From contig CALXYK010000004.1 of the NCBI GenBank assembly GCA_944392955.1, positions 69,048-133,047 of the forward strand: a stretch of 64,000 nt of DNA, written 5' to 3'. Below are positions 167-21,247 of this stretch, in pieces. Source of the stretch: an uncultured Alphaproteobacteria bacterium (GTDB lineage: Bacteria; Pseudomonadota; Alphaproteobacteria; Rs-D84; CACZYB01). Both the position numbers and the translations under genes were made by a program. The stretch's first letter is position 1. Every line of letters begins with the position of its first letter. The notes beneath the pieces are model-generated. The model ran no database searches and was not told where the DNA came from. It saw only the letters and a program-made list of their open reading frames with translations.

Positions 167-179
167 GGGGGGGGGGAAC

Positions 180-4148: not shown

Positions 4149-4204
4149 TAGGAATAAATTTCTAAACGCCCAAAGACAAAATTATTATTTAGATAACAAA
4201 AACC

Positions 4205-4233: not shown

Positions 4234-4252
4234 CTGCAAATATTAAAAAAAA

Positions 4253-4328
4253 GGGTGATTAGCTCAGTTGGTAGAGCAACTGACTCTTAATCAGTGGGTC
4301 GGGGGTTCGAATCCCCCATCACCCACCA
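4253..4328 (+). tRNA. tRNA-Lys (anticodon CTT)
   Basis: A 76-nt cloverleaf. The acceptor stem pairs GGGTGAT with ATCACCC. The T-arm is GGGGG-TTCGAAT-CCCCC. The anticodon stem ACTGA/TCAGT carries loop CTCTTAA (anticodon CTT). A genomically encoded CCA is present. Confidence 0.9.
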
Positions 4329-4382
4329 AAATTTTCAGCACAAAGCATTCTTTATAAATATAGGCAAACAGGCGAAATTCGC

Positions 4383-4411
4383 TTGACATAAGTCTTTTTT
4401 AAACTTATCAT
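4383..4411 (+). promoter_or_regulatory. Near-consensus sigma70 promoter (TTGACA-N17-TATCAT) for the downstream secreted-protein gene
   Basis: TTGACA at 4383-4388, a 17-nt spacer, and TATCAT at 4406-4411, about 45 nt upstream of the TTG start at 4459. Confidence 0.45.
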
Positions 4412-4458
4412 ACTTCAAAGTTAACTATTTAAAATAACTTAAATTTTGGGGAAAAATC

Positions 4459-5544: not shown

Positions 5545-5546
5545 AA

Positions 5547-6227
5547 ATGCAACAACTCCCACTTCTTTTGGAACATAGACGTTTACTTGGTCGTGAAGAT
5601 TTTCTCGTTTCCCCTTGTAATTTAGAAGCCGTAGAATGGATAGACTCTTACCCTGACTGGAACAATATATTTGCCATAGTTGTTTTAGGAAACAAATCAT
5701 CTGGGAAAACACATATTTCATGGTTATTCAGCGAAAAAACAGGTGCAAAAATATATAATTTCAACGAAATAACCGAGGAATTATTTTCAGATATAGTCCC
5801 CATAAATTCAGCATTAGTAATAGAAAATATTGATAACTTAATAGGAAACGAACAGAAAGAAGAAAGCCTATTTCACATAATAAATTATGCTATGGAATGT
5901 AATACAAAACTATTACTCACTTCTTCAACACAACTTTCCACATTAAACTTTTGTTTAATTGATTTAAAAACACGATTACTATCATTTCCTGTTGCAAACA
6001 TATATCCACCTGATGATGAGTTTTTAAAAGCTTTACTTGTAAAACAATTTTTAGAAAAAGATATAATAGTTACCCCAGATATAATAGAATATATAATAAA
6101 ACATATACCAAGAAATGCATCATCAGTCAAATACCTAGTAGAACAAGCAGATTTACTATCATTTGAACAAAAACATAAAATTACTATTCCATTTATAAAA
6201 AAGATTATGGAACAATTTGAAGACTAA
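5547..6227 (+). CDS. hdaA: DnaA-related regulatory inactivator HdaA (truncated DnaA-like AAA+ protein)
   Basis: A 226-aa protein. The N-terminus QQLPLLL...LLGREDFLVSPCNLEAVEWI matches the HdaA/Hda clamp-binding and N-terminal region. It carries Walker-A-like GNKSSGKTH. Confidence 0.7.
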   Translation: MQQLPLLLEHRRLLGREDFLVSPCNLEAVEWIDSYPDWNNIFAIVVLGNKSSGKTHISWLFSEKTGAKIYNFNEITEELFSDIVPINSALVIENIDNLIGNEQKEESLFHIINYAMECNTKLLLTSSTQLSTLNFCLIDLKTRLLSFPVANIYPPDDEFLKALLVKQFLEKDIIVTPDIIEYIIKHIPRNASSVKYLVEQADLLSFEQKHKITIPFIKKIMEQFED

Positions 6228-6831
6228 GCAAATACTTCTGTATTTGTGAAAAACTTATTCCACCTTCACGAATATAATTAACATTAGAACCCGTAATATC
6301 AATTATAGTAGAAGATTTTCCCGATATTTTCATATTAGTATCAAGTATTAAAATGTTTTTACCAAAAATTTTCTCTGCCTCAACAGCACTAATACACGGA
6401 GATTTGCCACTAATATTACAACTTGTGGAAACAAGAGGGATTTTAACTTTTGTTAAAATTTCCAGTAAAACTTTATTATTAGGAATCCTTATACCAACTT
6501 TATCATTTTTAATTACATAAGGGGATAAATTAGTCTTTCCCTTAACATTCAAAATCACACTTAACTCCCCTGGCATAAATTTTTTTATTAAACTCTCAGA
6601 TAACTTATTCAATTTCACATATTTTTTTAATGTAGTTATATTTGCAACATTAAGCAATAACGATTTATTTTCCTCACGATTTTTAAGTTTGTATATCTTC
6701 TGTATAGCTTTATCATCAATAGCAAGACAACCTATACCAAAAACCGTATCCGTAGGAAAAATTACGACTTGTCCTTCCAATAATTTTGAAACAATAAAAT
6801 TTATATTTTCCTTAGTCGGTTGAAGTATCAT
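6205..6831 (-). CDS. tsaC: L-threonylcarbamoyladenylate synthase (TsaC/YrdC family)
   Basis: YrdC fold motifs are present (VVIFPTDTVFGIGC, SVILNVKG, RIPNNKVLLEIL). The start is set at the internal Met (MILQPTKEN) because the first 30 codons of ORF 6205..6921 run into the divergent neighbouring gene, giving about 208 aa. Confidence 0.75.
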   Translation of the reverse strand: MILQPTKENINFIVSKLLEGQVVIFPTDTVFGIGCLAIDDKAIQKIYKLKNREENKSLLLNVANITTLKKYVKLNKLSESLIKKFMPGELSVILNVKGKTNLSPYVIKNDKVGIRIPNNKVLLEILTKVKIPLVSTSCNISGKSPCISAVEAEKIFGKNILILDTNMKISGKSSTIIDITGSNVNYIREGGISFSQIQKYLLSLQIVP

Positions 6832-6904
6832 TTTTAATCCTTGATTACTGAACTTTTTTAAGGTATTATATATCAGTGTAAATAAAAATAAAAGGGTTTT
6901 AAAT

Positions 6905-7966
6905 ATGAAAATTCTACACATAATTGATAATACATATTTTGAAACTCACCGAAAAACAATTTCTGAACTAATATTATCTCTATCCACCGAAGGAATAGAA
7001 CAAAAAATATACACCAATCCAAATACATCTTTGGGATGGTTGGAAAAAATTTGCGAAGTAATCAGATGGAAAATTTCCAAAAAGGGAAAAATAAAATCAC
7101 TATCAAATAAAATAAAAACATGGTTTGTATTTTCTGCCTTCCACCCTGATATTGTAATAAAATGGGGAAAACAAGCCCGGGAAATCGCCTATGGTGCGGG
7201 TGGTATACAAATATCATTTATAAATGAAAAGGAACCTTTGAAATCATTTGAAAATACAGATTATATAATGACTAATATAGATGAAGTTTTATCCTACTTA
7301 AAATCTCATGGATACAGTGGTATGCGATCATTTTTACTTCCTCCATTTATCTATGAATATAAAAAGGTTCCAACACTAAATAAAAAGGATTACTTCATCC
7401 CTGAAAAGGCAAAAATTATATATATTGCAGGAACACTAATTAAAAATATTGGATACGAAAGGGCTTTTGAGGCATTATCTATCATTTCCGACACATACTT
7501 TTTTGTTATAGGAAATGGACCTGACGAAGAATATGTAAAAGACCAAGCTCTAAAAGTTAACCTAAAAGCAAGATCTCGTTTCATTCCTGAAATAGAAAAA
7601 AGTTTTAATGCATTAGATTTAGTAGAGTTTTCATTTTTGCCATTTGAAGATCCTGAACTGCCTAAATATATTTTAGAATCTATGATACAAAAAAAGATTG
7701 TAATTACAATAAAAACTCCTCAATCCGAGGAATTTATCACCGAAGGCAAAACTGGTTTTTTCATTCCAAAGCAAGATATGTATTTAATAAAAAAGAAAAT
7801 AAAAGAAGTAATGAACCTATCCGAAGATGAAAAGCAAAATATTATAAATAATGCTTATGAACAGGCAAAAGAATACACTTCATCAAAAAAAATAAAAGGC
7901 TATGTCCAAATGTTTGATGAACTGATAAAAAAATACAACGAACGAAAAAACTTACTTAATAATTAA
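6905..7966 (+). CDS. Glycosyltransferase, GT-B/group 1-like (putative)
   Basis: A 353-aa protein. The C-terminal block EFITEGKTGFF resembles the GT1 E-x7-E region, and the spacing is Rossmann-like. The assignment is weak and based on motifs only. Confidence 0.45.
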   Translation: MKILHIIDNTYFETHRKTISELILSLSTEGIEQKIYTNPNTSLGWLEKICEVIRWKISKKGKIKSLSNKIKTWFVFSAFHPDIVIKWGKQAREIAYGAGGIQISFINEKEPLKSFENTDYIMTNIDEVLSYLKSHGYSGMRSFLLPPFIYEYKKVPTLNKKDYFIPEKAKIIYIAGTLIKNIGYERAFEALSIISDTYFFVIGNGPDEEYVKDQALKVNLKARSRFIPEIEKSFNALDLVEFSFLPFEDPELPKYILESMIQKKIVITIKTPQSEEFITEGKTGFFIPKQDMYLIKKKIKEVMNLSEDEKQNIINNAYEQAKEYTSSKKIKGYVQMFDELIKKYNERKNLLNN

Positions 7967-8574
7967 GAATTTTTCATATAATCAAATGCCTTTACCATAT
8001 ATTGCTTACCAGTCCAAATAGTTAAAATACTAGCAATCAATAACAAACATAAACCAACAACATAAATATTAAACAATGTATAATCCCAAAAAGAATTATA
8101 ATATCTATTAAGATAAGGTCTTCCAAATATTAAAAAGGAAATAGCAAATAATTGAGCCGTAGTCTTCCACTTTGCTAACCTTGAAACCGGCATTTTAACA
8201 TGGAAATTTCCCAAATATTCACGAAGTCCAGATACAAAAATTTCACGGCATATAATAACCGAAGCCAAAATAGTTTCAAATTTTCCAATAAATTTATTCT
8301 GAACCAAAACTATTAAAACCGTAGCGACCAATAATTTATCGGCAATCGGATCTAAAAAACGGCCTATTTCCGAAGTCAACTTCATCTTTCTTGATAAATA
8401 CCCATCAAGATAATCTGTAATACTTGCAAATACAAACAAAGCACAAGAAATATAATTCGCCCACATTATATCCTTACTATATAACATACAAAATATAGTA
8501 GGTATAATAAGAATTCTTATATATGTAAGTATATTAGGTAAAGACCAAACTAAATTTTTTGCTTTTTGTTTCAT
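7963..8574 (-). CDS. pgsA: CDP-diacylglycerol--glycerol-3-phosphate 3-phosphatidyltransferase
   Basis: It carries the CDP-alcohol phosphotransferase signature D-x2-D-G-x2-S/AR...G-x3-D-x3-D (DYLDGYLSRKMK...GRFLDPIADKL). It is a 203-aa polytopic membrane protein. Confidence 0.8.
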   Translation of the reverse strand: MKQKAKNLVWSLPNILTYIRILIIPTIFCMLYSKDIMWANYISCALFVFASITDYLDGYLSRKMKLTSEIGRFLDPIADKLLVATVLIVLVQNKFIGKFETILASVIICREIFVSGLREYLGNFHVKMPVSRLAKWKTTAQLFAISFLIFGRPYLNRYYNSFWDYTLFNIYVVGLCLLLIASILTIWTGKQYMVKAFDYMKNS

Positions 8575-8647
8575 TTTTTATCCTTTTTTTTCCTTTATTT
8601 CCTAGAATCATATATTAACAATTATAAAAATTTATTCAATTACAATT

Positions 8648-10459
8648 TTAATGAAAAGTTTTATAAATTTTTTCCGCTAAATTTTTGTTAATTCCAGACA
8701 CTTTCATAAGCTCCGAAATATTTGCATTTACTATATTTTTAACACTTCCAAAATAATTCAGCAATTCCTTTTTCTTTACCATACCAATACCTTCTATCTC
8801 ATCAAGGGCGGATTTAAAATGAGATTTTTCTCTTTTTTTCCTATGAGTTGTAATAGCAAATCTATGAGCCTCATCACGAATCCTTTGCAAAAAAAATAAC
8901 ACCGGATTATTTTTAGGCAAATTTATAGGTTTCTTACCCTTTTGATATAAGGTTTCTTCCCCTGCATTTCTATCTTCACCCTTTGCAATTCCCACAATTG
9001 GAATATCTAAATCAAGATTTCGTATGATATTGTATGCAATATCTAATTGCCCTTTTCCACCATCAACTATTATTAAATCAGGCAAGGTATGCTCTTTTTT
9101 TGCATGCATATATCTGCGATTAAGCACTTCGTCCATCATTTTATAATCATCACCCACAATATCAGATTTTATATTATACTTTCTATAATTATCTTTTTGA
9201 AAACCTTTTGGACCAACAACTATCATGGCACCAACTTTATCCGTTCCAAAAATATGAGAATTATCAAAAACATCTATCCTGTTAGGTGGGGATTTTAATT
9301 CAAATAAATTTTTCAAATCTTCCATATATTGTTTATTATTGCTATTTTCTATGAATTTTCTCTCCAAATGTAATTTAGCATTCTGCACAACCGTATCAAT
9401 GATTTTTCTTTTTGCTCCTTTTTTAGGAGTTTCCAACACAACTTTTTCCCCTTTAATAACAAACAAGCCTTCCTCAATATCTTCTATATCAAAAAGATCT
9501 ATATTAGTTAATATTTTTTGAGGAATTTCATGAGCAGCATAAAATTGCTCAATAAAAGAAGTCAAAACCTCTTGATCAATAGCATCTTTTGTATGTTCTG
9601 GGAAAAAGGAATATTGAGCACATATAATAGAATTTTTTGACACCAACACCTCTATTTCAAAGACATTTTCCTTTTCAAGGATAGTTATAATATCGGTATT
9701 ACCATCCAATTCTGACAATGTACTTTTTTTCAATATTTGATTTATATAAAAGATTTTATCCCTGTAAACTATTGCTTTTTCGTAATCTTTGTTATCACTG
9801 GCTTCCCTCATTTTTTTGGAAAGATTATCTATAATCTCTTTGTTATCACCTTTTAAAAAGGAGATTGCATTATCCACCTGTCTACGATATTCTGACAAAG
9901 ATATTTTTCCACAACAAACACCTGAACATTTTTTTATCTGATATAATAAACAAGGCATTTGCCTATTTCTTAGCATAGAGTCCTTACAAGTCCTTAACCC
10001 AAAAACAGATTGTATAAGTTTTATAGTTTCATTAACCGCCAATGACGAAGGAAAGGGACCAAAAAAATAACTAGATGAATTTTTATCCCCCCTAAATTTT
10101 CCCAATTTGGGAATTTCCTCCTTTGATATAGTCAAATAAGGATAGGATTTATCATCTTTCAAAAGGATGTTATACTTTGGATTTAATTGTTTGATTAAAT
10201 CTTGCTCTAATAACAAAGCCTCATTTTCAGTATTAGTTTTTATTATTTCCATAGAAGCCGTTTCCGAAATCATTTTTTTTATTCTTTCGGACAAGCCATC
10301 AAAATCCGTATAGTTTTTGATTCTTTTATGTAAATTTTTGGCTTTTCCTACATAAAGAACCTTTCCATCCTCCGCAAACATTCTATAAACACCAGGCGAA
10401 GTCGGAGTGTTTTTATGAAAATTTCTTATAAATTCTATACCTTTTAGTTTTTTTTGCAT
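8648..10459 (-). CDS. uvrC: Excinuclease ABC subunit C
   Basis: A 603-aa protein. The N-terminal GIY-YIG region (PGVYRMFAEDGKVLYVGKAKNL) and C-terminal RNaseH-like/HhH regions are present. Length and order are typical of UvrC. Confidence 0.9.
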   Translation of the reverse strand: MQKKLKGIEFIRNFHKNTPTSPGVYRMFAEDGKVLYVGKAKNLHKRIKNYTDFDGLSERIKKMISETASMEIIKTNTENEALLLEQDLIKQLNPKYNILLKDDKSYPYLTISKEEIPKLGKFRGDKNSSSYFFGPFPSSLAVNETIKLIQSVFGLRTCKDSMLRNRQMPCLLYQIKKCSGVCCGKISLSEYRRQVDNAISFLKGDNKEIIDNLSKKMREASDNKDYEKAIVYRDKIFYINQILKKSTLSELDGNTDIITILEKENVFEIEVLVSKNSIICAQYSFFPEHTKDAIDQEVLTSFIEQFYAAHEIPQKILTNIDLFDIEDIEEGLFVIKGEKVVLETPKKGAKRKIIDTVVQNAKLHLERKFIENSNNKQYMEDLKNLFELKSPPNRIDVFDNSHIFGTDKVGAMIVVGPKGFQKDNYRKYNIKSDIVGDDYKMMDEVLNRRYMHAKKEHTLPDLIIVDGGKGQLDIAYNIIRNLDLDIPIVGIAKGEDRNAGEETLYQKGKKPINLPKNNPVLFFLQRIRDEAHRFAITTHRKKREKSHFKSALDEIEGIGMVKKKELLNYFGSVKNIVNANISELMKVSGINKNLAEKIYKTFH

Positions 10460-10465
10460 TTTTAT

Positions 10466-10494
10466 TTGATTATCATCTTTTTTTATGATATACT
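10466..10494 (+). promoter_or_regulatory. Sigma70-like promoter (TTGATT-N17-TATACT) upstream of the pilin-like gene
   Basis: TTGATT at 10466-10471, a 17-nt spacer, and TATACT at 10489-10494. An SD (AAAGGAGA) lies 8 nt before the ATG at 10551. Confidence 0.35.
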
Positions 10495-10550
10495 AACAGT
10501 AGTTAAGAAAATTATACAAGAAAATAAAAAAAATACAAAGGAGAATAATT

Positions 10551-11078
10551 ATGATATTAAGAAAAAATGATTCTGGTCGTTCCATTGTGGAAATGCTTGG
10601 AGTTTTGGCGATTATGGGTGTTATAACCGTTATGGGTATACAAGGATATTCACAGGCTATTGGAAAAATTAACCGAAATAACCTTGTAGAAGATATTACA
10701 AGAATCGCCCAAGAGGTAAGGGGACTATATGCTGGTCGTTCATCTTATAATGAAAAAGATGGCGCCGATGGTTCCGCAGGATATAATATTGGAACAAACT
10801 TACTTGCAAAAATGAATTATAAACTATCATCACCTTATGGTGGAGATTATAAAATTGAATCATTTGGAACAACAGGTAAGAACCCTGGTTTCTCTGTCAG
10901 TGTTGAAAATGTACCAGTAGAAGATTGCCTATACTTTACAACTATGGCATGGGCTGATGTTATGGAAACAACAACAGGTGTTCCTGGATCCAGTGCTTTC
11001 GCAGGAGATTCTGCACCTGCTACCGGAACAACTTGTCCTGAATCTGATACTGCTGTTATAACTCTTTATTTCAGATAG
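10551..11078 (+). CDS. Type IV pilin-like / pseudopilin protein (class III prepilin signal)
   Basis: The N-terminus carries the prepilin peptidase motif G|RSIVEMLGVLAIMGVITVMGIQGY, which has the pattern of G|FTLIELMIVVAIIG. A C-terminal Cys pair (C...C) resembles the pilin D-region loop. Local GC is noticeably higher than the surrounding sequence. Confidence 0.6.
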   Translation: MILRKNDSGRSIVEMLGVLAIMGVITVMGIQGYSQAIGKINRNNLVEDITRIAQEVRGLYAGRSSYNEKDGADGSAGYNIGTNLLAKMNYKLSSPYGGDYKIESFGTTGKNPGFSVSVENVPVEDCLYFTTMAWADVMETTTGVPGSSAFAGDSAPATGTTCPESDTAVITLYFR

Positions 11079-11092
11079 TATAAAAGGTGTAA

Positions 11093-11131
11093 AAAAATAA
11101 AATCCACTCTGTTCTGAGTGGATTTTTTTAT
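11093..11131. terminator. Bidirectional rho-independent terminator between the pilin-like gene (+) and galE (-)
   Basis: The sequence is an A-run, then AATCCACTC-tgttct-GAGTGGATT, then a T-run. It works as a hairpin on both strands. Confidence 0.65.
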
Positions 11132-11146
11132 TCTTATAAGTTCTTA

Positions 11147-12109
11147 CTAATATTTCTTATTTAATTCCCAATCCCAAGCTGTTTTTATAATAGTTTCCAT
11201 ATTCAACTTAGGTTTCCACCCTAATACATCTAATGCTTTTTGATTTGATGTATATAAAATACCAGGATCCCCAGGACGTCTTCCCTCTAATACAACGGGA
11301 CACTTTTTCCCTGTAATATCTTCGGAAATTTTAACTATTTCCCTAACACTTGTCCCTTTATTGGTTCCAAGATTTATAACACCACTAAAATCAGCAATTT
11401 TTTCAATTGCCAACCTGTGTGCTTCGGCTAAATCTTCTACATGAATAAAATCCCTAATACAGGTACCATCAGGAGTATCATAATCTGTTCCAAAAATCTT
11501 TATACTATCATTTTCACCCTTAATAGCCTTCAAAACAAGAGGGATTAAATGGGTCTCTGGATTATGAGATTCCCCTAAACTACCATCTAATGAACAACCT
11601 GAGGCATTAAAATATCGCAAAGCAATATAATTTAAACCATATGCATTTCTATAATCCTTAAATATCTTTTCAATCATCAATTTTGATTGTCCATAAGGAT
11701 TTATTGGATTTGTATTATGATTTTCATCAATCGGAGTATATTCTGGATTTCCAAATACTGCTGCCGTAGAAGAAAATACTATATTTTTTACATTATTATC
11801 CAACATAACATTCAAAAGGTTCAAAGTTCCAACAACATTATTATTATAATATTTAGATGGATTTTTAACACTTTCCGCCACAGATGCAAATGCAGCAAAA
11901 TGAATAACTGAATCAATTTTATACTTTTTGAATATTTTATCCAAGGAATCCTTATCCATCAAATCAGCCAATTCAAAATCAGCTGTTAAAACCGCCTCTT
12001 TATGTCCTGTTGATAAATTATCTGCAACAACAACATCATAACCATTCGCAATCATATTTTTCACAGTATGAGAGCCAATATACCCTGCTCCACCAACAAC
12101 TAATATCAT
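11147..12109 (-). CDS. galE: UDP-glucose 4-epimerase
   Basis: N-terminal NAD-binding motif GGAGYIGSH, catalytic YxxxK (YGQSK), 320 aa. Confidence 0.85.
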   Translation of the reverse strand: MILVVGGAGYIGSHTVKNMIANGYDVVVADNLSTGHKEAVLTADFELADLMDKDSLDKIFKKYKIDSVIHFAAFASVAESVKNPSKYYNNNVVGTLNLLNVMLDNNVKNIVFSSTAAVFGNPEYTPIDENHNTNPINPYGQSKLMIEKIFKDYRNAYGLNYIALRYFNASGCSLDGSLGESHNPETHLIPLVLKAIKGENDSIKIFGTDYDTPDGTCIRDFIHVEDLAEAHRLAIEKIADFSGVINLGTNKGTSVREIVKISEDITGKKCPVVLEGRRPGDPGILYTSNQKALDVLGWKPKLNMETIIKTAWDWELNKKY

Positions 12110-12179
12110 TTTATCTCCTTTTTCTTAATCAAATAAAATATATCAAGGCAAAGTCTATATTATTTTTCTTTCAATTTCA

Positions 12180-12794
12180 ATGAAATTTATATATACTATA
12201 ACTATGATAATTAAACGTTTTATTTCTGGCCCATTAGAGAATAATAATTACCTCGTTATTGATGAAAGTACAAACGAAGGTGTTTTAATAGATTGCAGTG
12301 AAATATCAAACAAAATAGATTCATACATAAGTAATAATAAAATCAATTTAAAATATATATTACTAACTCATGCACATTTTGATCATATATTAGGTGTGGA
12401 TTTTTTCAGACAAAAATACAAACCTTCTGTCTTCCTTCATAAAGATGATAAAGATTTATTAAATATGCTTAACACTTTCATTCCTAAGGCAAAAATTCCA
12501 ACTATTGATACATTTTTTGATGAAAATTTACACTTACAAATTGGAAATATAGATATAAAGATAATACACACGCCTGGACATAGTAATGGTAGTTGTTGTT
12601 TTTTAATAAAAGACAATCTTTTTTCAGGGGACACCCTATTTTACAAAGGATACGGAAGAACAGATCTTCCATTTGGAAATGAAAATAATTTATTCAAAAG
12701 TTTAACCAAACTTTTTTTACTTCCAAACGAAACAAAGGTATTTCCCGGTCATGGCTTTGAAACCAGTATAAAACAGGAAAAGTCTATTTACTAA
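12180..12794 (+). CDS. MBL-fold metallo-hydrolase (glyoxalase II / beta-lactamase-like)
   Basis: The HxHxDH motif (THAHFDHILG) plus downstream His and Asp ligands (HTPGHS, GDTLF) are present. Confidence 0.7.
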   Translation: MKFIYTITMIIKRFISGPLENNNYLVIDESTNEGVLIDCSEISNKIDSYISNNKINLKYILLTHAHFDHILGVDFFRQKYKPSVFLHKDDKDLLNMLNTFIPKAKIPTIDTFFDENLHLQIGNIDIKIIHTPGHSNGSCCFLIKDNLFSGDTLFYKGYGRTDLPFGNENNLFKSLTKLFLLPNETKVFPGHGFETSIKQEKSIY

Positions 12795-15700
12795 AATAAA
12801 TAATTAATCCCTAACATAAATTGATTATTTTTATATTCTTCTTTGAAATCTGAAAAATATTTGAAATAAACATTAAAAGATGAATAAAAATCTAAATTAA
12901 GGTTTAATCCAACTGAATATTTATTTTTATAAATAGGCAAAGATTCAGAAATAAAGTCCAGATTCGTATTTTCAAAAGAGGCATTTAGTTTTACATTGTT
13001 ATCCGAAATCAACCTAGCATAAGAAATAAATAATTCTGGCCTCAAAGCAAAAGTCTCAAAATATTTTACAAAACTTACATTAAACGACACTGGAAGCTGA
13101 GCAATAAAAAAATCATCACTATCTATACATCTATTTAATCCCCCTGCTTGTGTCTCGCAAAAATCATCTGCTCTTACATATGAAATATCCGTTCCAATAC
13201 TAGGATACAAATTAAACTCATTCCAACTAAATAAATATCCCAAAGAAAAATAAGTATTTACTAAATTATTTGTAAAATTGGATTTTGCCACTAAATTAGA
13301 AGGCAATCTTGAAAAATCATACTCTGCACTACTAATAAAACTTGCAAATCCGAAACCATAATTTACAAATATTTTATCAAATTTTTTTGCTCCATACAAG
13401 GTCATATTATAAACATCTGTATCTACATCTAATATATTATCATTTGTTAAAAACGAAGAATTTCCTATAACAAAAGAAACTCCTAAAATATTATCATCAA
13501 ACATTTTATCAATACCAAAACTTACACCATTAAAATCATTTTTAAACCCATCAAAATCTCGAATATCATTTTGTGTAACATTAGAAAAAATAGGATAAAT
13601 CCAAAATCCGTTTTTATTTTCTCTTACATTTTCTAAAAAATTTGTCCTTGTTTTAGCAGGATTCAGTAAAAAATAATTCAATTCAGGAACAAATGATGAG
13701 AAAGTAGCATATTTTTCAACAGATAAATCATCTAAAACATATTTAAGTTGCCCAACAGAATCTACACCTGTATAGATAAAATTTATTGCATCATTTAATT
13801 CCATTTCTAAATTAAAATCATCATATAAATCATCTATTAAATTTGCAACTTGATACTCATTATAATTTAAACCTGCCACATCATTTATTTTCAGCAACGA
13901 AGGATTAACTATTATATACAAAACATGTTTTCCTGCATATTCTCCTTCTGTTTCCAATACCCACTGAGCAGTGTAATTTGTAAATAAACTATTTGTCAAA
14001 TCTAAGTGCTGAGATATACTAAGCGGATTATTGGTATCTTCTGAATCCGCAACTAAAATTGGGAATTTATTGCTTACTCCATCAATAATACGAGCATCAG
14101 AAACAGCCGCTATATAAGAATTTTCATTAAAACTAACTTTGCCACTAACAATAATTTTAGATTCAGCAGATGGCGAAAATGTCGTAGTCTGAGGGGATAT
14201 AATCGCTAAATAGCTTCCACCATTTTGTAAACTAAGATTTCCATCAATATTCAATATACTATTTATATTAGATGTTATATATCCACCATTACTAACATTA
14301 ACAGAATTTCCATTTAAGTTTATATTTCCATTTCCAAATAATAGTCCATTAACCATAATATCATTATCTGTATCTACAATAGCATTATCATATAACCCTA
14401 AAAAAGATCCTTCTAAAACATTTAATGTATTGGCATACAAAGAAGTATTTTGAACTTCAAGATTTCCTTTTGAACTTTTATCAAATATAGTTTGAGCAAA
14501 ACTATTTCCAACATTCAAAGTTCCCTCCACACTAAACGGCTGACTAAGTATCAATTTTGCATCATCAACAATATTAAACGAACCATTACCTGATAAATAA
14601 ATGCTTTCTTGTGGTTGCATATTCGCTCTTAAAAAAATACTTCCATTGTTCACAATGTTCTGAGCTAAAAAATTCCTCCACATAGAATTATCCTCAGACA
14701 TTATGTCCACAACAGCACCATTTGAAATAGATATATCCCCAATATCATACGAAATCCCAGGTATAGTATTCAACCCATAATAGAAGAAATAAGTTTGATC
14801 AGTAATATTTGTTCCAATATTATAAACAGAATTTGGGGCAAAAGTTAACCTTCCCCCATCATTAATATATACTTGCCCTGCATTATTAAATACAGAACCA
14901 ATATATAACCAACCTCCATCATTTATATTCAAGTTTGCATTATAAAAAGAAAATACGACATCATCTGATGAAGATAAAATAGAAAACATAGCACCATCTT
15001 CTATGGTTAAATTTTGATTTCTAAAATCCATCAAAACACTACCTGACAAAGAATTTACGACAAATTGTTTAAACGAAGCACTATTGCCAACTTCATAAGA
15101 ACTATTTCCAATCATATTTAAATCAGAAACGCCATAAGGATTTAAAAATAAAATTCTACTTAATTGACTACTACCATCATTTTCAATAATAATATTTGAT
15201 AATAAATTTTGCATAAAATTACTTGAAGATAAATTAAGTATATCTGAATATTGATTCAAAAAGATTTTACCAGTTTCAGAAGAAACATAAGAAGAAGCAT
15301 CTTCAAAAATTAAATAAGATCTATCATAAGGATAACTACTACCGCCAGTCAAAGATATACTACCATAATTTTCTAACAATGCTGTATCAAAATTTTCTAT
15401 CGCAGATGGATATGTATCATTGTAAACATCAGAAGCAGAAGATACAACATTTATATTTCCATATACATTATTTCTTAATAAAGAATAGGAATATAAATGA
15501 GAGTCTATCAAATTTAAATAAGAATTCCCGATGCCTCCATTTTCGTTTCCTATTATAAAACTTGTATCAGAGCCTAAAAAAATTTGCCCTATATTCCTAC
15601 TGGATAATTTATTACCATTCATATTCAAAACTGCCTGATTTCCAATTGACGAATATAAAAACACTTTTCCAAAATTAGATAAAGAAATTAATCCCCCCGG

Positions 15701-15931
15701 AACAACATTTAAATAAGTATTCAAACTACTATCTATCTTATCTTGAAATAGCAAAGTCCCATCATTTGTAATAATAAGTCCATTACTAGAAGGCATCTCT
15801 CCAACGCCACTTCCATCATTACTAATATAAGTAAGTGAACTATTAATAACAGAAGGCAATTGTGTATCTGCACGACAAATTTCTGAAAATGCTACCAATG
15901 CCAACAATAAAATGTACCTTAAATATTTCAT
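12791..15931 (-). CDS. Autotransporter (type Va) outer-membrane protein with a large Asn/Gly/Ser-rich beta-helical passenger
   Basis: A 1046-aa protein. The signal peptide is MKYLRYILLLALVAFSEICRA. The passenger region is repetitive (NxGxI/L-type beta-helix). The C-terminal ~280 aa has alternating hydrophobic beta-strands and ends in ...GINYLF, a terminal aromatic typical of beta-barrels. Confidence 0.7.
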   Translation of the reverse strand: MKYLRYILLLALVAFSEICRADTQLPSVINSSLTYISNDGSGVGEMPSSNGLIITNDGTLLFQDKIDSSLNTYLNVVPGGLISLSNFGKVFLYSSIGNQAVLNMNGNKLSSRNIGQIFLGSDTSFIIGNENGGIGNSYLNLIDSHLYSYSLLRNNVYGNINVVSSASDVYNDTYPSAIENFDTALLENYGSISLTGGSSYPYDRSYLIFEDASSYVSSETGKIFLNQYSDILNLSSSNFMQNLLSNIIIENDGSSQLSRILFLNPYGVSDLNMIGNSSYEVGNSASFKQFVVNSLSGSVLMDFRNQNLTIEDGAMFSILSSSDDVVFSFYNANLNINDGGWLYIGSVFNNAGQVYINDGGRLTFAPNSVYNIGTNITDQTYFFYYGLNTIPGISYDIGDISISNGAVVDIMSEDNSMWRNFLAQNIVNNGSIFLRANMQPQESIYLSGNGSFNIVDDAKLILSQPFSVEGTLNVGNSFAQTIFDKSSKGNLEVQNTSLYANTLNVLEGSFLGLYDNAIVDTDNDIMVNGLLFGNGNINLNGNSVNVSNGGYITSNINSILNIDGNLSLQNGGSYLAIISPQTTTFSPSAESKIIVSGKVSFNENSYIAAVSDARIIDGVSNKFPILVADSEDTNNPLSISQHLDLTNSLFTNYTAQWVLETEGEYAGKHVLYIIVNPSLLKINDVAGLNYNEYQVANLIDDLYDDFNLEMELNDAINFIYTGVDSVGQLKYVLDDLSVEKYATFSSFVPELNYFLLNPAKTRTNFLENVRENKNGFWIYPIFSNVTQNDIRDFDGFKNDFNGVSFGIDKMFDDNILGVSFVIGNSSFLTNDNILDVDTDVYNMTLYGAKKFDKIFVNYGFGFASFISSAEYDFSRLPSNLVAKSNFTNNLVNTYFSLGYLFSWNEFNLYPSIGTDISYVRADDFCETQAGGLNRCIDSDDFFIAQLPVSFNVSFVKYFETFALRPELFISYARLISDNNVKLNASFENTNLDFISESLPIYKNKYSVGLNLNLDFYSSFNVYFKYFSDFKEEYKNNQFMLGINYLF

Positions 15932-16153
15932 TCTTCCTCCCTAAAAAAATTATAAGAAAAGAAGAACAAAATACAACAATACAAAATTCCTATTGTAAAA
16001 AGCTTTTATTTCACCAAATTTTATTCAAAAATAATTAAAATTTTTAACTTAGGTTTAATTTAACTTACATCAGCATTTAAATTAACATTTATATATTACA
16101 AAAAAATCGCAAAACATCTGATTTTAACGTTTTATATTGTAATACAATTAAAA

Positions 16154-17572
16154 TTAAATATCTAATAACAACTTGTCGCTTATAATTTTATAAAAAGATA
16201 TTGACAACATAACTTTCTTGTGAATAAGACTACTGTAGGTTTCAAGACCCCCAGATTTGTTGCTGGAAGGTGTTTTCTTGGAACCTATTTCTTTTTGATT
16301 ATAAGACATTGGAATTAAATGTCTAGTAGCAACCTTATCAAGGAAGAAGTGAGCCATTTCGTGAGGTAGTGTTCCAAAGTTAAAGTTAGAACCTAGTACT
16401 ATTGCTTTTAATTCAGAATCAAAGAAGCCGTTTGCATTTTGATTTAGAATAGTGTCTTCTAAATTATTGTTGACATTAGTGTCTTGTGCTTTTGATAATT
16501 CTTTTATCCTATTTTTAATAGAATCACCAATTTTTAAATTAATTGTATTGACTTCTGTTTCTTTTGATTGTATATTAAAGTTATCAGCCCCTGATAAAGT
16601 GTCTTTGACGCGTTCGGGGGTTGTTTTAACTCTTACATTATATAAATCCAAGATGTTTTTATCTTGTCCTTTTACTTGTTCTGTTGCAAGTTCTACATCA
16701 TAATTTTTACCATTTATAATTATTGGACTTTTAAAATATATATATTTATCTATATTTGCTTTATGTTCTAAAGTTTCTTTTCTTGTATTATGTGATAAAT
16801 CTACATTTTCTTCATTTGTTTTAGTTGCATTATTTATTATTTTTTCAATACTATTAAGTGATGTTTGATGTCGTCTTTTTTGCCTATTATTTAATTTAAC
16901 ATTAGAGCGAATAACGTGTGCTTTATTTCCATCTGTAATTTGTATTTGTAAAGGTGGAGTAGATGTATCAAGAGGTTTTCCTATAAGTTCGTTGATATAC
17001 TTTTCAATATCTTTTTCTGTAATATTACCATCTTTAATATTTTTAAATTCTTCAGAAAGGTCTACTACATTACTACTTACTTCTCCTACTTCTTCTTGAA
17101 ACAGTATCTTTTCTACTGTATTGTCTACATCATTAGTATTCATAAAGACTGACTTAAGGTCCTTATCTGTAATTACTCCATCTTTGATTAAGCCGTCTGT
17201 TATAGAACTTTCTTGTAGAGTTTGAAGTGCTATATCTCTTTTTGTAAAAGAAATATTTTTTTTATTTTCTTTACGGCTCAATTTATCAACATAATTTTCT
17301 AAAAATTCTTGAGTTTGAACATCAGAACCGAATGTAAAAGCATAAAGTAAAGCATTAACATTTGTATCATTACCTACAACCATTGAAAAGTTTTCTTTGT
17401 TTGTATTTGGTAGTTTTGTTAAAACTTGTTGGAGTTCTTTGTTTAAATCTGTCTTTTTACCAATACTTACAATATCAGGAATGTTTGCTATGATATTTCT
17501 TTTTGCTACCGGTATTCTGTCTTCAAGTACTAAACTTTGATATAATGTTTTATTTTTAAGGATATTCGCCAT
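16154..17572 (-). CDS. Signal-less 472-aa protein with a C-terminal HExxH zinc-metallopeptidase-like motif (HEMAHFF); candidate secreted effector or toxin
   Basis: There is no signal peptide. The middle is long and charged. The C-terminal block GTLPHEMAHFFLDKVATRHLIP carries HExxH. Two DNA segments of this gene (16308-16334 and 16425-16485) recur in the upstream intergenic region (see pseudogene). It lies between an autotransporter and tRNA-Leu. Confidence 0.55.
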   Translation of the reverse strand: MANILKNKTLYQSLVLEDRIPVAKRNIIANIPDIVSIGKKTDLNKELQQVLTKLPNTNKENFSMVVGNDTNVNALLYAFTFGSDVQTQEFLENYVDKLSRKENKKNISFTKRDIALQTLQESSITDGLIKDGVITDKDLKSVFMNTNDVDNTVEKILFQEEVGEVSSNVVDLSEEFKNIKDGNITEKDIEKYINELIGKPLDTSTPPLQIQITDGNKAHVIRSNVKLNNRQKRRHQTSLNSIEKIINNATKTNEENVDLSHNTRKETLEHKANIDKYIYFKSPIIINGKNYDVELATEQVKGQDKNILDLYNVRVKTTPERVKDTLSGADNFNIQSKETEVNTINLKIGDSIKNRIKELSKAQDTNVNNNLEDTILNQNANGFFDSELKAIVLGSNFNFGTLPHEMAHFFLDKVATRHLIPMSYNQKEIGSKKTPSSNKSGGLETYSSLIHKKVMLSISFYKIISDKLLLDI

Positions 17573-17599
17573 AACTGCATTTGTTCTTCTAGTTATTGC

Positions 17600-17968
17600 A
17601 GTTGCCGTTTGCGTTTTGATTTAGAATAGTGTCTTCTATATTATTGTTGACATTAGTTTTTAATTCATTTATTATGAAATTAAGACCAGAGAGGGTGTCA
17701 GTGGTATCATTTGATACTGAGCCAAAATTACTAGAATCTGACGCAGGCACTCTGGCTTTTTCTATTTTAAAAGCACTAGTTATTTTATTTTGACCACCAC
17801 TTTGAGTTATTATAAATCTGTATGATGTATCATTGTGTATTGTTTCTAAAACAATATTTTTATCTCCATAATAGTTTTTTCTATTTGTAATTTCTCCATA
17901 AACAATATTATCTAAACTATTTATAGCATTTTATTATAACATATTGGAATTAAATGTCTAGTAGCAAC
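17600..17968 (-). pseudogene. Decayed, rearranged paralog fragment of the adjacent HExxH-protein gene
   Basis: Segment 17607-17660 is nearly identical to 16425-16485 (gccgtttgcNttttgatttagaatagtgtcttctaNattattgttgacattagt). Segment 17944-17968 matches 16310-16334 (ggaattaaatgtctagtagcaac, encoding VATRHLIP). On the minus strand the ~100-aa open frame ...TDTLSGLNFIINELKTNVNNNIEDTILNQNANGNCNN* parallels the gene's DTLSG...TNVNNNLEDTILNQNANG but has no start codon. The two matching segments sit in inverted order compared with the intact gene. Confidence 0.5.
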
Positions 17969-18084
17969 ACATAATTTTCAAACAAAATAAACACTATCAA
18001 TTATCCCTTATAACACAATCCCGAAACACAAAATTTATTATATAAACTAATAGAAATAAAATCGAAAAATCAGAGATTTTGAAA

Positions 18085-18175
18085 TGGTGCAGATGGCCGG
18101 AATCGAACCGGCACGGGCGTTTGAATGCCCGAGGGATTTTAAGTCCCTTGCGTCTACCTGTTCCGCCACATCTGC
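18085..18175 (-). tRNA. tRNA-Leu (anticodon TAA), long variable arm
   Basis: The reverse complement reads GCAGATG-TG-GCGGAACAGGTAGACGC-A-AGGGA-CTTAAAA-TCCCT-(long V-arm CGGGCATTCAAACGCCCGTG)-CCGGTTCGATTCCGG-CCATCTGC-A-CCA. The anticodon loop CTTAAAA gives anticodon TAA. Confidence 0.85.
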
Positions 18176-18238
18176 ATAGGTAGATAAACAAAACACTCAC
18201 ATTATATATAAAATTTTCTATTTTTCAAGAAAAATTTA

Positions 18239-19621
18239 CTAAAATTTTAAATCTCCTAAATCCGGCATATTCGCAAATTCCCCACTATCCTTCATTTGCT
18301 TTGCCATTTGCATCAATCCCTTTAAACCGCCCATATTATTCATCTGTTCCATCATAGACTTAGTTTTTTGATAATGCTTAATCAACTTTTCAACATCGGA
18401 CAAGGAAACTCCCGCCCCCTTTGCAATACGTTTTTTTCTTCCCAAAAGTAGTATATCAGGATTTCTCCTTTCCTTTAATGTCATAGAAAGTATTATAGCC
18501 TCCTGTTTTTTCATCATATCATCATTCATTCCAGCGGATTGTAGTTTATCAGCAATACCAGAAATTCCCGGAATAAATTTCATAATTCCGCCAATACTAC
18601 CTAATTTTTTTACTTGTTTAAATTGTGAAAGCATATCTTCAAAATTGAATTGCCCCGACATCAAACGATCGGTAAGTTTTTTTGCCTCATCCTCGTCAAT
18701 TTTTTCTTGTGCCTTTTCTACTAAGGAAACTATATCACCCATACCCAAAATACGGCTAGCAATTCTATCAGGGAAAAATAGTTCCAAATCATCCTCTTTT
18801 TCTCCACTACCTAAAAATTTAACAGGCACTCCAATAGAAGCCTTCATAGATAACGCGGAACCACCTCTTGCATCACCATCAACCCTAGTCATAATAATAC
18901 CAGTTAAGCCCAAGGCATCATTAAACGATTTTGCGACATTAACTCCATCTTGCCCCATCAAAGCATCTACACAAAGGAAAATATCATCAGGACAAAGCAT
19001 CTTTTTTATCTCTGAGATTTCCTTCATCATATCGGAATCAATACTAACCCTACCCGCAGTATCAACTAAAACAACATCAAAATCGGCAAAGGATTTTTTC
19101 GCTCTTTTGATAATATCTAAGGCTTTCTCACCTTCCACAATAGGCAAAGTTGCAACACCTATTTTTTCACCCCAAATTTTAAGTTGTTCCCTTGCCTGAG
19201 GTCTATATACATCAGTTGAAAGCATTAAGACACTTTTTCCATACTTTTTCTGTATAAACTTTGCAAGTTTAGCAGTGGTAGTAGTTTTTCCACTTCCATT
19301 CAAACCGGACATCAATATTATATAAGGTTTCTTATCCAACACCAAACCATCATTTTTTTCACCCAGCATTGAAACCAGTTCATCATTAACTATTTTCACC
19401 ACTTGATTAGCAGGGCTAACATCCTTTATAATTTGTTGACCTATTGCTTTTTCTTCTATTTTTTGCAATAAATTTTTTACAACAGGCAAAGAAACATCTG
19501 CTTCTAACAAAGCAATTTTTATTTCTCGCAATGCATCTTTTACATCTGTTTCAGAAAGTTTATTTTTACCTCTGATAGCATCAAAAGTTCTTAATAATTT
19601 TTTTGATAATGATTCAAACAT
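18239..19621 (-). CDS. ffh: Signal recognition particle protein Ffh
   Basis: A 460-aa protein. The NG domain has GTPase motifs (GLNGSGKTTT, DTAGR, TRVDGD). The C-terminus is Met-rich (M domain). Confidence 0.9.
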   Translation of the reverse strand: MFESLSKKLLRTFDAIRGKNKLSETDVKDALREIKIALLEADVSLPVVKNLLQKIEEKAIGQQIIKDVSPANQVVKIVNDELVSMLGEKNDGLVLDKKPYIILMSGLNGSGKTTTTAKLAKFIQKKYGKSVLMLSTDVYRPQAREQLKIWGEKIGVATLPIVEGEKALDIIKRAKKSFADFDVVLVDTAGRVSIDSDMMKEISEIKKMLCPDDIFLCVDALMGQDGVNVAKSFNDALGLTGIIMTRVDGDARGGSALSMKASIGVPVKFLGSGEKEDDLELFFPDRIASRILGMGDIVSLVEKAQEKIDEDEAKKLTDRLMSGQFNFEDMLSQFKQVKKLGSIGGIMKFIPGISGIADKLQSAGMNDDMMKKQEAIILSMTLKERRNPDILLLGRKKRIAKGAGVSLSDVEKLIKHYQKTKSMMEQMNNMGGLKGLMQMAKQMKDSGEFANMPDLGDLKF

Positions 19622-19636: not shown

Positions 19637-21247
19637 TTAATTTACTGCACTAGGTTCAATAGGTCCAAATGTTTCGGAAATTCCTAAAATTTCATCAACT
19701 AAAACATAGACATCTTTTAAATAATCCTTTGCAGATAAGTTAAACTTTTCTGGATTATCTTCATACTTTTCTATATAAAGTCGCATAGTCGCACCAACAG
19801 TTCCTGTACCTGACAATCTGAAAAATATCCTTATACCATCAGTTGTAAAGATTTGAACACCTTGAGCCTTAGATACCTCAGAGGTAACAGGATCTTTGTA
19901 ATCAAAGACTTCTTTTGATGCAATTTCAAATTTTCCATACATTTTTCCATCAATAGAAATGGTTTTCATTTTTTCCCAAATGGCTTCTGCTTTTTCTTTA
20001 TCAACACCTTCATAACTATATTGAGAATAGAAAATTCTACCATTTTCACTCCAAATTTCTTTTACAATTTCTGCAACACTTTTTCCAGTTTTTGCAAGGA
20101 TATTCAACCAAAACAATATTGCAAAGATTCCATCTTTTTCACGAATATAATCGCCCCCCTGCCCAAAACTTTCTTCACCACAAAGATTTATTTTTTTTGC
20201 ATCTAATAATGTCGCAAAAAATTTCCAACCAGTCGGAGTATTATATACATTTATACCCATTTTATCTGCAACTTTGTCTACTGCACTTGATGTAGGAATA
20301 GAACGAGCCACACCTAACAACCCATCCTTATAATAAGGGATAAGTTTATGATACTTTGTCATAACAGCCAAACAATCCGAAGGTATCACATAAAACCCCT
20401 TTCCCAGTATCATATTTCTATCACCATCACCATCACATGCACAACCAAAATCGGCCACCCCTTCCATCATAGCATCATAAATTTCACTAGCATAAGTAGG
20501 ATTAGGTTCCGGATGCACACCACCGAAATCAGGCATAGGTTTTGCATTTAAAATCCAATCATATTTAGCCTCTAACCTATTCACAAATATTTCTATCGCA
20601 GTAGGTCCCGTAGACGCATTCATCGCATCAAATCTAAACGTATGCCCACTTCTGAACCAATCACGAATAGCAGGAAAATCAAACATAGACTCCATTAAAT
20701 CAGCATAATCTTTTATAGGATCTAAAAATTCAACTTCATCCAAAGAAAGTGCTTCCTCATCTGATATATCCAAAGAAAGATAGGTCTGTATTTTTTTTGT
20801 TTCCTCAAAAATAGCATTGGTAATAGATTCAGGAGCTCCACCACCATTGGACATTTCAACCTTTATACCAAAATCACCATTTTCTCCACCAGGATTATGA
20901 GATGCCGAAAGGATAAAACCACCATCTGCATTATACTTTCTTATTATATTAGAAATAGCAGGAGTCGGAGCCACCAACTCTTTACCTACTACAAAAATTT
21001 TTTTTACACCATTTGCAACAAGTAATTTTATTATCTTAGGTAAAAATTGTATTCCTGGATAACGACCATCACCACCTATAACCCATGTATCAATCTTATC
21101 CCCATTATTTTTTCTAACAGAAATAGAAGATTGTATGAAATTTTCCAAAAAATTCTTCTGCATAAAAATTTTAGTTTGTTTTCTTAAACCACCTGTTCCT
21201 GGTTTTTGATTATCAAATGGCTTTGTATCAATTTTTAAAATATCCAT
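19637..21247 (-). CDS. pgm: Phosphoglucomutase (alpha-D-glucose phosphate-specific)
   Basis: A 536-aa protein with the active-site Ser loop SASHNPGG, the metal-binding motif DGDGDR and the sugar-binding motif GEESFG. Confidence 0.85.
   Translation of the reverse strand: MDILKIDTKPFDNQKPGTGGLRKQTKIFMQKNFLENFIQSSISVRKNNGDKIDTWVIGGDGRYPGIQFLPKIIKLLVANGVKKIFVVGKELVAPTPAISNIIRKYNADGGFILSASHNPGGENGDFGIKVEMSNGGGAPESITNAIFEETKKIQTYLSLDISDEEALSLDEVEFLDPIKDYADLMESMFDFPAIRDWFRSGHTFRFDAMNASTGPTAIEIFVNRLEAKYDWILNAKPMPDFGGVHPEPNPTYASEIYDAMMEGVADFGCACDGDGDRNMILGKGFYVIPSDCLAVMTKYHKLIPYYKDGLLGVARSIPTSSAVDKVADKMGINVYNTPTGWKFFATLLDAKKINLCGEESFGQGGDYIREKDGIFAILFWLNILAKTGKSVAEIVKEIWSENGRIFYSQYSYEGVDKEKAEAIWEKMKTISIDGKMYGKFEIASKEVFDYKDPVTSEVSKAQGVQIFTTDGIRIFFRLSGTGTVGATMRLYIEKYEDNPEKFNLSAKDYLKDVYVLVDEILGISETFGPIEPSAVN

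Follow-up and report, generated by a model that had tools for sequence, protein, structure and literature searches.

Phage DNA within a likely remnant of a type II-C CRISPR array beside a tRNA-Leu gene in an uncultured alphaproteobacterium

Introduction

Type II-C CRISPR systems have cas9, cas1 and cas2 as their full cas set, and promoters embedded in the repeats are a hallmark of the type II-C arrays of Neisseria and Campylobacter (PMC5965381). In Streptococcus pyogenes, the prophage PhiAP1.1 integrates into the repeats of a type II-A array (Varble et al., 10.1101/2020.10.09.333658), and recombination between spacers and phages promotes CRISPR-locus transduction, according to work cited there (Varble 2019; Watson 2018). 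Polyvalent proteins, which occur in phages and in conjugative elements, are defined by MuF_C, ART-PolyVal and LPD3 modules (PMC5512222). Here we analyze a 64,000-nt stretch of DNA from an uncultured Alphaproteobacteria bacterium (GenBank assembly GCA_944392955.1, contig CALXYK010000004.1, positions 69,048 to 133,047 of the forward strand; hereafter the window). The 2.15 kb that separate a tRNA-Leu gene from an autotransporter gene in this window are likely, at a probability of about 0.75, what is left of a type II-C CRISPR array that has no cas genes in its vicinity, and its repeats bracket 1,599 nt derived from a phage gene.

In laboratory work, phages have proved capable of integration into CRISPR repeats and of recombination with spacers directed against them. 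To our knowledge, natural and fixed products of such phage-array events have rarely been documented, especially for type II-C systems and for uncultured bacteria. A first-pass annotation, made from the sequence without database searches, had read the same interval as a tRNA-flanked accessory island or a recombined polymorphic toxin/effector locus that joined an autotransporter to a metalloprotease and its decayed paralogue; most of that interpretation is revised below.

Results

CRISPR repeats between tRNA-Leu and the autotransporter gene

Positions 16294-16333 and 17929-17968 of the window are identical at 37 of 40 nucleotides, 26 of them in one exact run, and no such match arose in 100 dinucleotide shuffles. 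An exact scan of JGI metagenomes found the 26-nt core in tandem, at a period of 66 nt, in three contigs (L071, L072 and L073). Their unit consists of a 36-nt repeat, GTTGCTACTAGACATTTAATTCCAATATGATACAAT, and 30-nt spacers, with 4, 10 and 12 perfect copies (26 in total). A terminator hairpin comes after the array in L071 and L073, and beyond it lie cas2, cas1 and cas9 in convergent orientation. By comparison with these arrays, the 40-nt repeat of the window is identified as containing a bona fide 36-nt type II-C CRISPR repeat. The first-pass annotation had correctly spotted two duplicated segments, of 54 and 25 bp, in inverted relative order; the shorter one is this CRISPR repeat rather than a piece of the HExxH gene to which it had been assigned.

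The tRNA-proximal copy, R1 (17933-17968, minus strand; GTTGCTACTAGACATTTAATTCCAATATGTTATAAT), agrees with the consensus at 34 of 36 positions and has the same sequence as the first two repeats of a sister strain, L076, described below. The distal copy, R2 (16298-16333, minus strand; GTTGCTACTAGACATTTAATTCCAATGTCTTATAAT), is a terminal-type variant that agrees with the consensus at 32 of 36 positions and is identical to the last L076 repeat. R2 is followed by an array tail (16173-16297, minus strand) with a degenerate array terminator motif, CAG..A.ATCTGGGG, common to the tails of L071, L072, L073 and L060, the last being a contig of a related organism. A possible, degenerate third repeat, R3 (16136-16172, minus strand; GTTGTTATTAGATATTTAATTTTAATTGTATTACAAT), matches at 21 of 26 core positions and may be a chance match; all five core mismatches are C-to-T changes, it ends in TACAAT like the consensus within a promoter-like TAGATA-17-TACAAT arrangement, and it is conserved in L076. 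As R1 and R2 are 1,599 nt apart and R2 and R3 125 nt apart, regular spacers of about 30 nt are not present in the window.

The consensus repeat resembles a promoter, with TAGACA-16-TACAAT and an upstream TG. R1, which has the upstream TG, and R2 both carry TAGACA-16-TATAAT, a resemblance that is a consensus match to promoter elements only.

The insert derives from a phage gene for a polyvalent virion protein

Most of the DNA between the repeats is spanned by an open reading frame (ORF) of 472 codons (16154-17572, minus strand). As first annotated, its product lacks a signal peptide and has a HEMAHFF motif at residues 404-410. Its sole Pfam domain is LPD3 (PF18798, E=1.2e-6), the "large polyvalent protein-associated domain", and its close relatives are mosaic fragments with MuF_C, ART-PolyVal or LPD3 modules. 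A scan of 1.8 billion representative proteins retrieved the 1818-residue protein P0012 (E=1.5e-114), which itself carries LPD3 (E=1e-19). Residues 1-413 of the ORF align with P0012 residues 546-927; identity is about 96% in both flanks of the alignment, the LPD3 module in the middle differs in variant from that of P0012, and homology ends at ...HEMAHFFLDK.

The P0012 gene is present on contigs L067-L070, of which L067 comes from a 32.4-kb contig with a guanine-cytosine (GC) fraction of 0.30; unless stated otherwise, phage coordinates below refer to L067. The gene comes after the tail genes: genes for a major head protein, a head-tail adaptor, two tail-tube proteins and two unannotated proteins lie upstream, and genes for pRha, a DNA methylase, a RecE/YqaJ exonuclease and a helix-turn-helix regulator lie downstream. 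This is the position of the genes for T7-type internal virion proteins. The source of the 472-codon ORF is this gene, for a "polyvalent" internal virion protein of a T7-like podophage that infects this bacterium. The ORF had no match by tblastn among cultured phages and plasmids, and protein and DNA scans of IMG/VR returned none either; the MuF_C module of one relative, P0002, was alone in matching polyvalent proteins of Stx phages. No other copy of the phage fragment was found within the window.

Read on the minus strand from R1, the insert begins with segment A (17658-17932), an open frame, NAINSLDNIVYGE..., that corresponds to the C-terminal half of a diverged module at the LPD3 position. 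Segment A has no Pfam hit and shows weak, colinear similarity to phage 12380-12634 and to P0012 residues 852-877. It ends in a linker copy, D1' (17604-17657, minus strand; TNVNNNIEDTILNQNANG), 98% identical to phage 12635-12688. Segment B (16334-17605, minus strand) corresponds to phage 11603-12781 with the middle LPD3 module swapped for the other variant: nucleotide identity is 94.6% between window 17605-17085 and phage 11603-12123, and 94.1% between window 16485-16334 and phage 12630-12781. Within segment B, inside the 472-codon ORF, lies a second linker copy, D1 (16427-16480, minus strand), which agrees with D1' at 52 of 54 positions, a match again absent from 100 dinucleotide shuffles. The 54-nt repeat is the linker of a modular phage gene present twice and not a decayed paralogue, so the "scrambled paralog remnant" of the first-pass annotation resolves into an internal phage-gene linker and, as its upstream open frame, phage segment A. 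At the join between the segments (17604/17605), phage position 12688 is fused to 11603 with a microhomology of about 2 nt. The whole arrangement recurs in the independent metagenome assemblies L001 and L002 (5.1 kb at 99.9% identity), so that three assemblies, the window included, have the same structure.

The 30 nt that precede R2 have no mismatch to phage 12752-12781. By form, these 30 nt and R2 thus appear to keep a spacer-repeat unit directed against the phage, one that would work only if the genome encodes Cas9 and a trans-activating CRISPR RNA (tracrRNA).

The 472-codon ORF is a by-product of these joins. Its start corresponds to Met546, an internal residue of the phage protein, and has no clear ribosome-binding site; from there it runs through LPD3, the first ~45 residues of an HExxH module, R2 and the array tail to a stop codon inside R3. 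Residues 414-472 have no homologue except the identical sequence in the sister strain. Across 17 diverse homologues the HExxH module is conserved, with invariant residues that include H35, E36, H39, E84, E91, W113 and Y118, a pattern compatible with, and not proof of, the zincin assignment of Iyer et al. No Pfam model matches the module above threshold (DUF6782, E=0.025). The window ORF keeps module positions 1-45, the first third, which breaks off 4 residues past HExxH, and has lost the downstream E84 and E91 and all invariants past L42; it therefore cannot be an active peptidase, and the metalloprotease proposed earlier has to be given up. The ORF is an accidental reading frame, probably a pseudogene left by the history of the locus, which may still be transcribed from the promoter predicted within R1.

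A sister strain retains a canonical array at the same locus

Residues 422-472 of the ORF correspond to a separate 51-residue gene call in L076, the contig of the sister strain. L076 is 97.6% identical to window 16333-12366, the autotransporter gene included, and has at the same locus the order repeat-S1-repeat-S2-repeat-tail, in which both spacers measure 30 nt. Spacer S2 matches phage 3274-3303, within the head-tail adaptor gene, at 29 of 30 positions (E=4e-9), a match that links the host and its array to the phage. Two positions distinguish R1 from R2, and L076 has both variants; the insert of the window therefore replaced an S1-repeat-S2 interior, with no repeat duplication.

L076 carries a phage fragment of its own. 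Upstream of its first repeat lies an antisense fragment of the polyvalent gene, running from phage 12163 to 11658 at 95.5% identity and ending exactly at the repeat. We considered whether an inversion could derive the fragments of the window and of L076 from one ancestor and rejected this, as each copy has phage-homologous sequence that is missing from the other.

Fragments of the same gene were captured elsewhere as well. L060, from a related organism with 30% GC, has one repeat of a related type, GTTGCGAATTGACTAAAATTTCCTATATGCTATAAT, and a terminator beside cas2-cas1-cas9, with an anti-repeat of the tracrRNA type upstream of cas9 (sites at 7489-7524 and 12929-12964); its cas9-cas1-cas2 locus is thus left with a single CRISPR repeat. 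A polyvalent-gene fragment (P0008, ~1.4-1.6 kb) lies immediately 5' of that repeat, is 90% identical to phage 12652-13203 and ends at the last base before the repeat. No second repeat was found upstream of the L060 fragment. A generic search for flanking repeats around the L060 and L061 fragments had been uninformative, and the L060 repeat was recognized once the CRISPR consensus was known. In L061 (6602-7510), a 302-residue fragment of the gene, 92% identical to phage 12652-13100, stands alone between the housekeeping genes DUF3126 and ymdB/recF-like. L075 (1-1369, P0005) holds another fragment, with abundant CAAC-N5-6-GTTG palindromes on both flanks; its contig ends in the 3' half of a tRNA, and phage homology stops 8 nt beyond the position of the junction in the window. 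Every captured fragment derives from the 11.6-13.2 kb region of one phage gene.

An unrelated organism with 48% GC (L064, with L065) has a 37-nt hairpin repeat, GTTTTACGACCTTCCGAAATCGGAAGGTCGTTTAGGA, in two copies 288 nt apart (6181-6217 and 6469-6505) beside a solitary cas1. There, phage-like genes, including one for a 578-residue LPD3/InPase protein and P0007, run into the hairpin repeats.

Phage homology stops at the repeat edge next to a PAM-like motif

At three junctions, those of the window R2, the first L076 repeat and the L060 repeat, the match to the phage runs up to the 5' edge of the repeat and breaks off precisely there. In the window it ends sharply at 16334, and the next base is the start of R2. 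The three junctions lie at three different phage coordinates and comprise both orientations.

We then compared the 3' flanks, in the phage, of the true S2 protospacer (CATTTATAGA) and of the two junctions that involve the window's own repeat family, namely window R2 (AATTTTAAGA) and L076 (TATTTTTAAG). All three share N-A-T-T-T, with a chance probability of ~2.5e-4, or 9e-4 if any in-register 4-mer is allowed. This agreement suggests that the 30 nt next to each repeat derive from protospacers flanked by a protospacer-adjacent motif (PAM), either as former spacers or as ends defined by Cas9.

The flanking genes are resident and rearranged

The first-pass annotation had placed the block between galE and a metallo-beta-lactamase (MBL)-fold hydrolase gene on one side and ffh on the other, and it does lie there. 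The hydrolase gene (12180-12794, plus strand) and galE are converged on by the 1046-codon autotransporter ORF; on the far side follow tRNA-Leu(TAA) (18085-18175, minus strand), ffh (18239-19621, minus strand) and the gene for phosphoglucomutase (PGM; 19637-21247, minus strand). ARAGORN and Rfam both recover the tRNA-Leu, which is a resident gene and not an attachment site. In the Rfam scan of the window only two tRNAs reach the gathering score, with no CRISPR-DR or tracrRNA family among the hits. The ~500 nt next to the tRNA (about 17590-18084) hold no long ORF. The 116-nt stretch between the tRNA and R1 (17969-18084, minus strand) occupies the position of an array leader; neither this stretch nor the tail after R2 has a significant match to L067.

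The closest genome found through Ffh (L003, 78% identity) keeps the order PGM-ffh-tRNA-Leu; the tRNA is therefore at its ancestral position, and the region is one where rearrangements meet. Homology between L003 and the window ends at the end of tRNA-Leu, with the 116-nt stretch outside it. In L003 the tRNA is followed by a gene for a 348-residue protein, hda and tsaC, which in the window lie at 4.5-7.9 kb, beside tRNA-Lys. We also noted that a block comprising a gene for a 361-residue protein, hda, tsaC and GT1 comes after tRNA-Leu in L003 and after tRNA-Lys(ctt) in the window, and that the gene order of window 1-12800 is strongly rearranged relative to L003 and to two further relatives, L062 and L063. 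For the block itself these three relatives show rearrangement rather than an empty site. A single inversion relative to L003 was tried as an explanation of the layout and rejected, as the autotransporter would then have the wrong orientation relative to L062 and L063. The loss of rpsP beside ffh, which had been attributed to this junction, is ancestral for the clade: rpsP is absent after ffh in L003 too.

The 1046-codon ORF (12791-15931, minus strand) encodes an autotransporter, as had been annotated, of type Va, with a full-length Pfam match to the Autotransporter domain (PF03797) at residues 776-1025 (E=1.2e-29), a passenger of ~750 residues without a Pfam hit, and an N-terminus, MKYLRYILLLALVAFSEICRA, that looks like a signal peptide by eye. 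Same-length orthologues with 51% identity (P0010 and P0011) are encoded in L062 and L063, where their genes converge directly on a LysM/M23 peptidase gene after tatC and no phage fragment is found near them. In the window the autotransporter gene adjoins the MBL hydrolase gene instead, with tatC and the M23 gene at 0.5-2.8 kb; in L076 the same autotransporter gene directly follows the CRISPR array. The autotransporter gene is a fast-evolving, vertically inherited gene of the clade, a neighbour of the array remnant rather than a part of it; it is unrelated to the array and was placed alongside through local rearrangement.

Further observations concern other parts of the window. A GC-richer intergenic segment (53829-53903) is conserved in L060 (5704-5781; 77% over 78 nt), where its counterpart lies between a histidine-kinase gene and the phage fragment; no Rfam family reaches the gathering score there, and the segment may be an undescribed small RNA. 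At 54019-54112, a 42-nt unit is repeated 2.3 times at 96% identity and contains a GC-rich hairpin, GGGGTGAAGG...CTTCACCC. A gene for a PilS-like type IVb pilin (10551-11078) between uvrC and galE has a GC fraction of 0.38, against a window mean of 0.31. The phosphoglucomutase (19637-21247) ends in a C-terminal domain, PF24947 (E=2e-32), whose model is named for vertebrate/fungal PGM1. The genes present, among them those for Hda, Tat, an autotransporter and a type IV pilin, are suggestive of a proteobacterial host.

Origin of the locus and alternative explanations

We consider it likely, at the odds given above for the array remnant, that the locus arose by spacer-guided recombination between phage and array, followed by decay; the mechanism itself is inferred. 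The array would formerly have held spacers against the polyvalent gene of the phage. During an infection, phage DNA would have recombined with one or more matching spacers, the homology serving as the crossover site, possibly assisted by the phage's own RecE/YqaJ-type recombination system. Phage DNA would thereby have been joined to spacer-repeat units and displaced resident ones. Later steps would have produced the present mosaic, through the illegitimate join at 17604/17605, exchange of the module at the LPD3 position with later phages, and decay, and the cas genes that follow the array in relatives would have been replaced by the rearranged autotransporter region.

Several points weigh against this origin. 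All sequences are metagenome assemblies. A simple double crossover or a simple deletion would not leave 12688 joined to 11603 in this order. Within the 64-kb window, neither a cas gene nor an anti-repeat nor a further array was found. For the PAM there is a single true protospacer, N-A-T-T-T does not flank the 30 nt after R1, and neither the 24 spacers of L071-L073 nor S1 have a convincing protospacer in the phage DNA compared. Lastly, the fragments of L061 and L075 end without a recognizable CRISPR repeat, so that array capture is not the sole route by which such fragments settle.

Aberrant spacer acquisition would explain some of the same features. If Cas1-Cas2 had joined a long phage DNA end, selected by Cas9 next to a PAM, to the repeat border in place of a 30-nt prespacer, phage DNA would be expected to abut the first repeat base, as it does at all three junctions; PAM-like flanks would be expected too, and in L076 the junction is at the first repeat, the entry site of new spacers. 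Full-site integration, however, duplicates a repeat, whereas R1 and R2 differ at two positions and both variants pre-exist in L076, and the L060 fragment has no second repeat upstream. We know of no such activity of Cas1-Cas2 on fragments this long, and we regard this route as unlikely. Less likely again is site-specific integration of a temperate phage into a CRISPR repeat, in the manner of PhiAP1.1, with subsequent deletion of nearly all of the prophage. Prophages in type II-A repeats, often with one terminal repeat left, are documented (10.1101/2020.10.09.333658), and L060 has a single repeat next to its fragment. Yet R1 and R2 are complete 36-mers with phage DNA at their edges rather than hybrid attL/attR sites, the junctions fall at three places inside one structural gene and in both orientations, and the 25 kb of phage examined contain neither an integrase nor a repeat-like attP. 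The 472-codon ORF might instead have been domesticated by the host and be functional, such as an anti-phage or regulatory factor built on LPD3: its 472 codons are intact and identical in three assemblies, the LPD3 domain is complete, and a promoter-like element lies upstream in R1. Against this stand the start at an internal phage methionine without a clear ribosome-binding site, the last 59 residues, which are translated from a CRISPR repeat and the array tail, the truncation and inversion of the fragment in the sister strain, and the peptidase module without any invariant residue after L42; we rank domestication below both preceding routes, as improbable.

An assembly chimera that joined host-array and phage contigs through the 30 nt common to spacer and protospacer was likewise judged unlikely, slightly behind domestication. 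All the data are metagenome assemblies, some at ~3x coverage, and a homology break at the spacer-repeat border is the expected signature of a chimera. Logan contigs such as L060 may, moreover, be built with short k-mers. The structure nevertheless recurs at 99.9% identity, including the join with 2-nt microhomology, in three independent assemblies; host DNA lies directly at both ends of the insert, which differs by 2-6% from the known phage and has a different middle module; and the L076 contig was seen in two samples. For SPAdes-named assemblies, an overlap of 30 nt is also shorter than the largest k-mer assumed.

A tRNA-Leu-targeted island or polymorphic toxin/effector locus uniting the autotransporter with a metalloprotease, as first proposed, is very hard to credit and ranks last. 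The block does adjoin a tRNA 3' end and include both repeats and foreign DNA, and the view that it holds recombined foreign material stands for the HExxH ORF and the supposed remnant, both of which are phage DNA; it fails for the autotransporter, a clade gene with orthologues elsewhere in relatives, and no coherent island results. No direct repeat derived from the tRNA-Leu 3' end was found elsewhere in the window, for either a 26- or a 45-nt end and with up to 20% mismatches, and Pfam reveals no integrase or recombinase in the block, whose only ORFs, besides short frames, are those of the autotransporter and the phage fragment. The 472-codon ORF has a truncated HExxH module and, by Pfam, no trafficking, secretion or toxin domain, and no small immunity gene lies downstream. 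Synteny also speaks against it, with ffh-tRNA-Leu ancestral and kept in L003 and the autotransporter beside the M23 gene, without a phage fragment, in L062 and L063. A distinct composition of the block was not borne out. Window GC is ~30% throughout; GC and third-position GC (GC3) are 0.278 and 0.160 for the autotransporter gene and 0.278 and 0.165 for the 472-codon ORF, compared with 0.308±0.034 and 0.202±0.028 over 44 window ORFs, and the codon-usage distances of both lie below the mean of these 44. This composition test does not settle the matter, since phage and host are alike in GC (0.30).

Beyond spacer-guided recombination at this one locus, capture of kilobases of phage DNA at the 5' edges of repeats may be a recurrent and mechanistically specific outcome of type II-C immunity in this clade, a generalization that we offer tentatively and consider doubtful. 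If it were true, spacer-guided recombination or end-joining by Cas9/Cas1-Cas2 would install "mega-spacers" that delete the spacers beside them, are transcribed from promoters inside the repeats and keep a functional spacer-repeat unit at their end. Phage-array recombination would then regularly destroy and reshape CRISPR memory in nature and seed chromosomes with fragments of phage effector genes.

Discussion

Three states of the locus can be told apart: a canonical mini-array in the sister strain, a phage fragment at the array head, and spacers replaced by 1.6 kb of phage DNA. With a matching phage genome, the junctions, a candidate PAM and a host-phage pair, the loss and rewriting of arrays in the wild becomes testable. 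The locus also carries two warnings for annotation, as ORFs that run through degenerate CRISPR repeats can pass as "HExxH proteins" and CRISPR finders that expect regular spacing miss repeats around long inserts.

Compared with the type II-C arrays of Neisseria meningitidis and Campylobacter jejuni (PMC5965381), the locus is alike in its 36-nt repeats, their GTTG start and their end in a -10 box. The likeness extends to the 30-nt spacers in the relatives and the sister strain, to the cas9, cas1 and cas2 genes that adjoin the array convergently in relatives, and to the anti-repeat of L060. The window itself differs in having no cas genes in 64 kb, two or three repeats and a 1,599-nt insert. The polyvalent proteins described by Iyer et al. 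2017 (PMC5512222) resemble P0012, which is likewise a large, multi-module, virion-associated protein with LPD3, encoded among virion genes, and whose relatives carry MuF_C, ART-PolyVal and HExxH modules; the window has an internal fragment only. With tRNA-linked islands the locus shares foreign DNA at the 3' end of a tRNA, and it differs from them in the lack of an integrase, an att duplication or a compositional signal and in neighbouring "cargo" that is vertically inherited.

Closest to the locus are the known encounters of phages with type II arrays. As with PhiAP1.1, phage DNA lies inside a type II array, spacers have been lost, few repeats remain and immunity to that phage would be weakened. 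With PhiAP1.1, the target of the integrase is an 8-bp core within the repeat, and the prophage is there in full (10.1101/2020.10.09.333658), whereas here the repeats are intact, the junctions at their edges fall at varied points of one structural gene, 1.6 kb is left and no integrase is seen. Spacer-phage recombination, as far as it is described where Varble 2019 and Watson 2018 are cited, is alike in that homology between spacer and protospacer provides the crossover and phage recombinases are implicated, here RecE/YqaJ, and the junction that it predicts, from phage into a spacer-repeat unit, matches the locus. In the portion of that literature considered here, the systems are staphylococcal and Pectobacterium laboratory systems that yielded packaged hybrids, whereas the present product is fixed in a chromosome and its link to the process is drawn from sequence. 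We conclude that the locus is probably a natural variant of known phage-CRISPR recombination.

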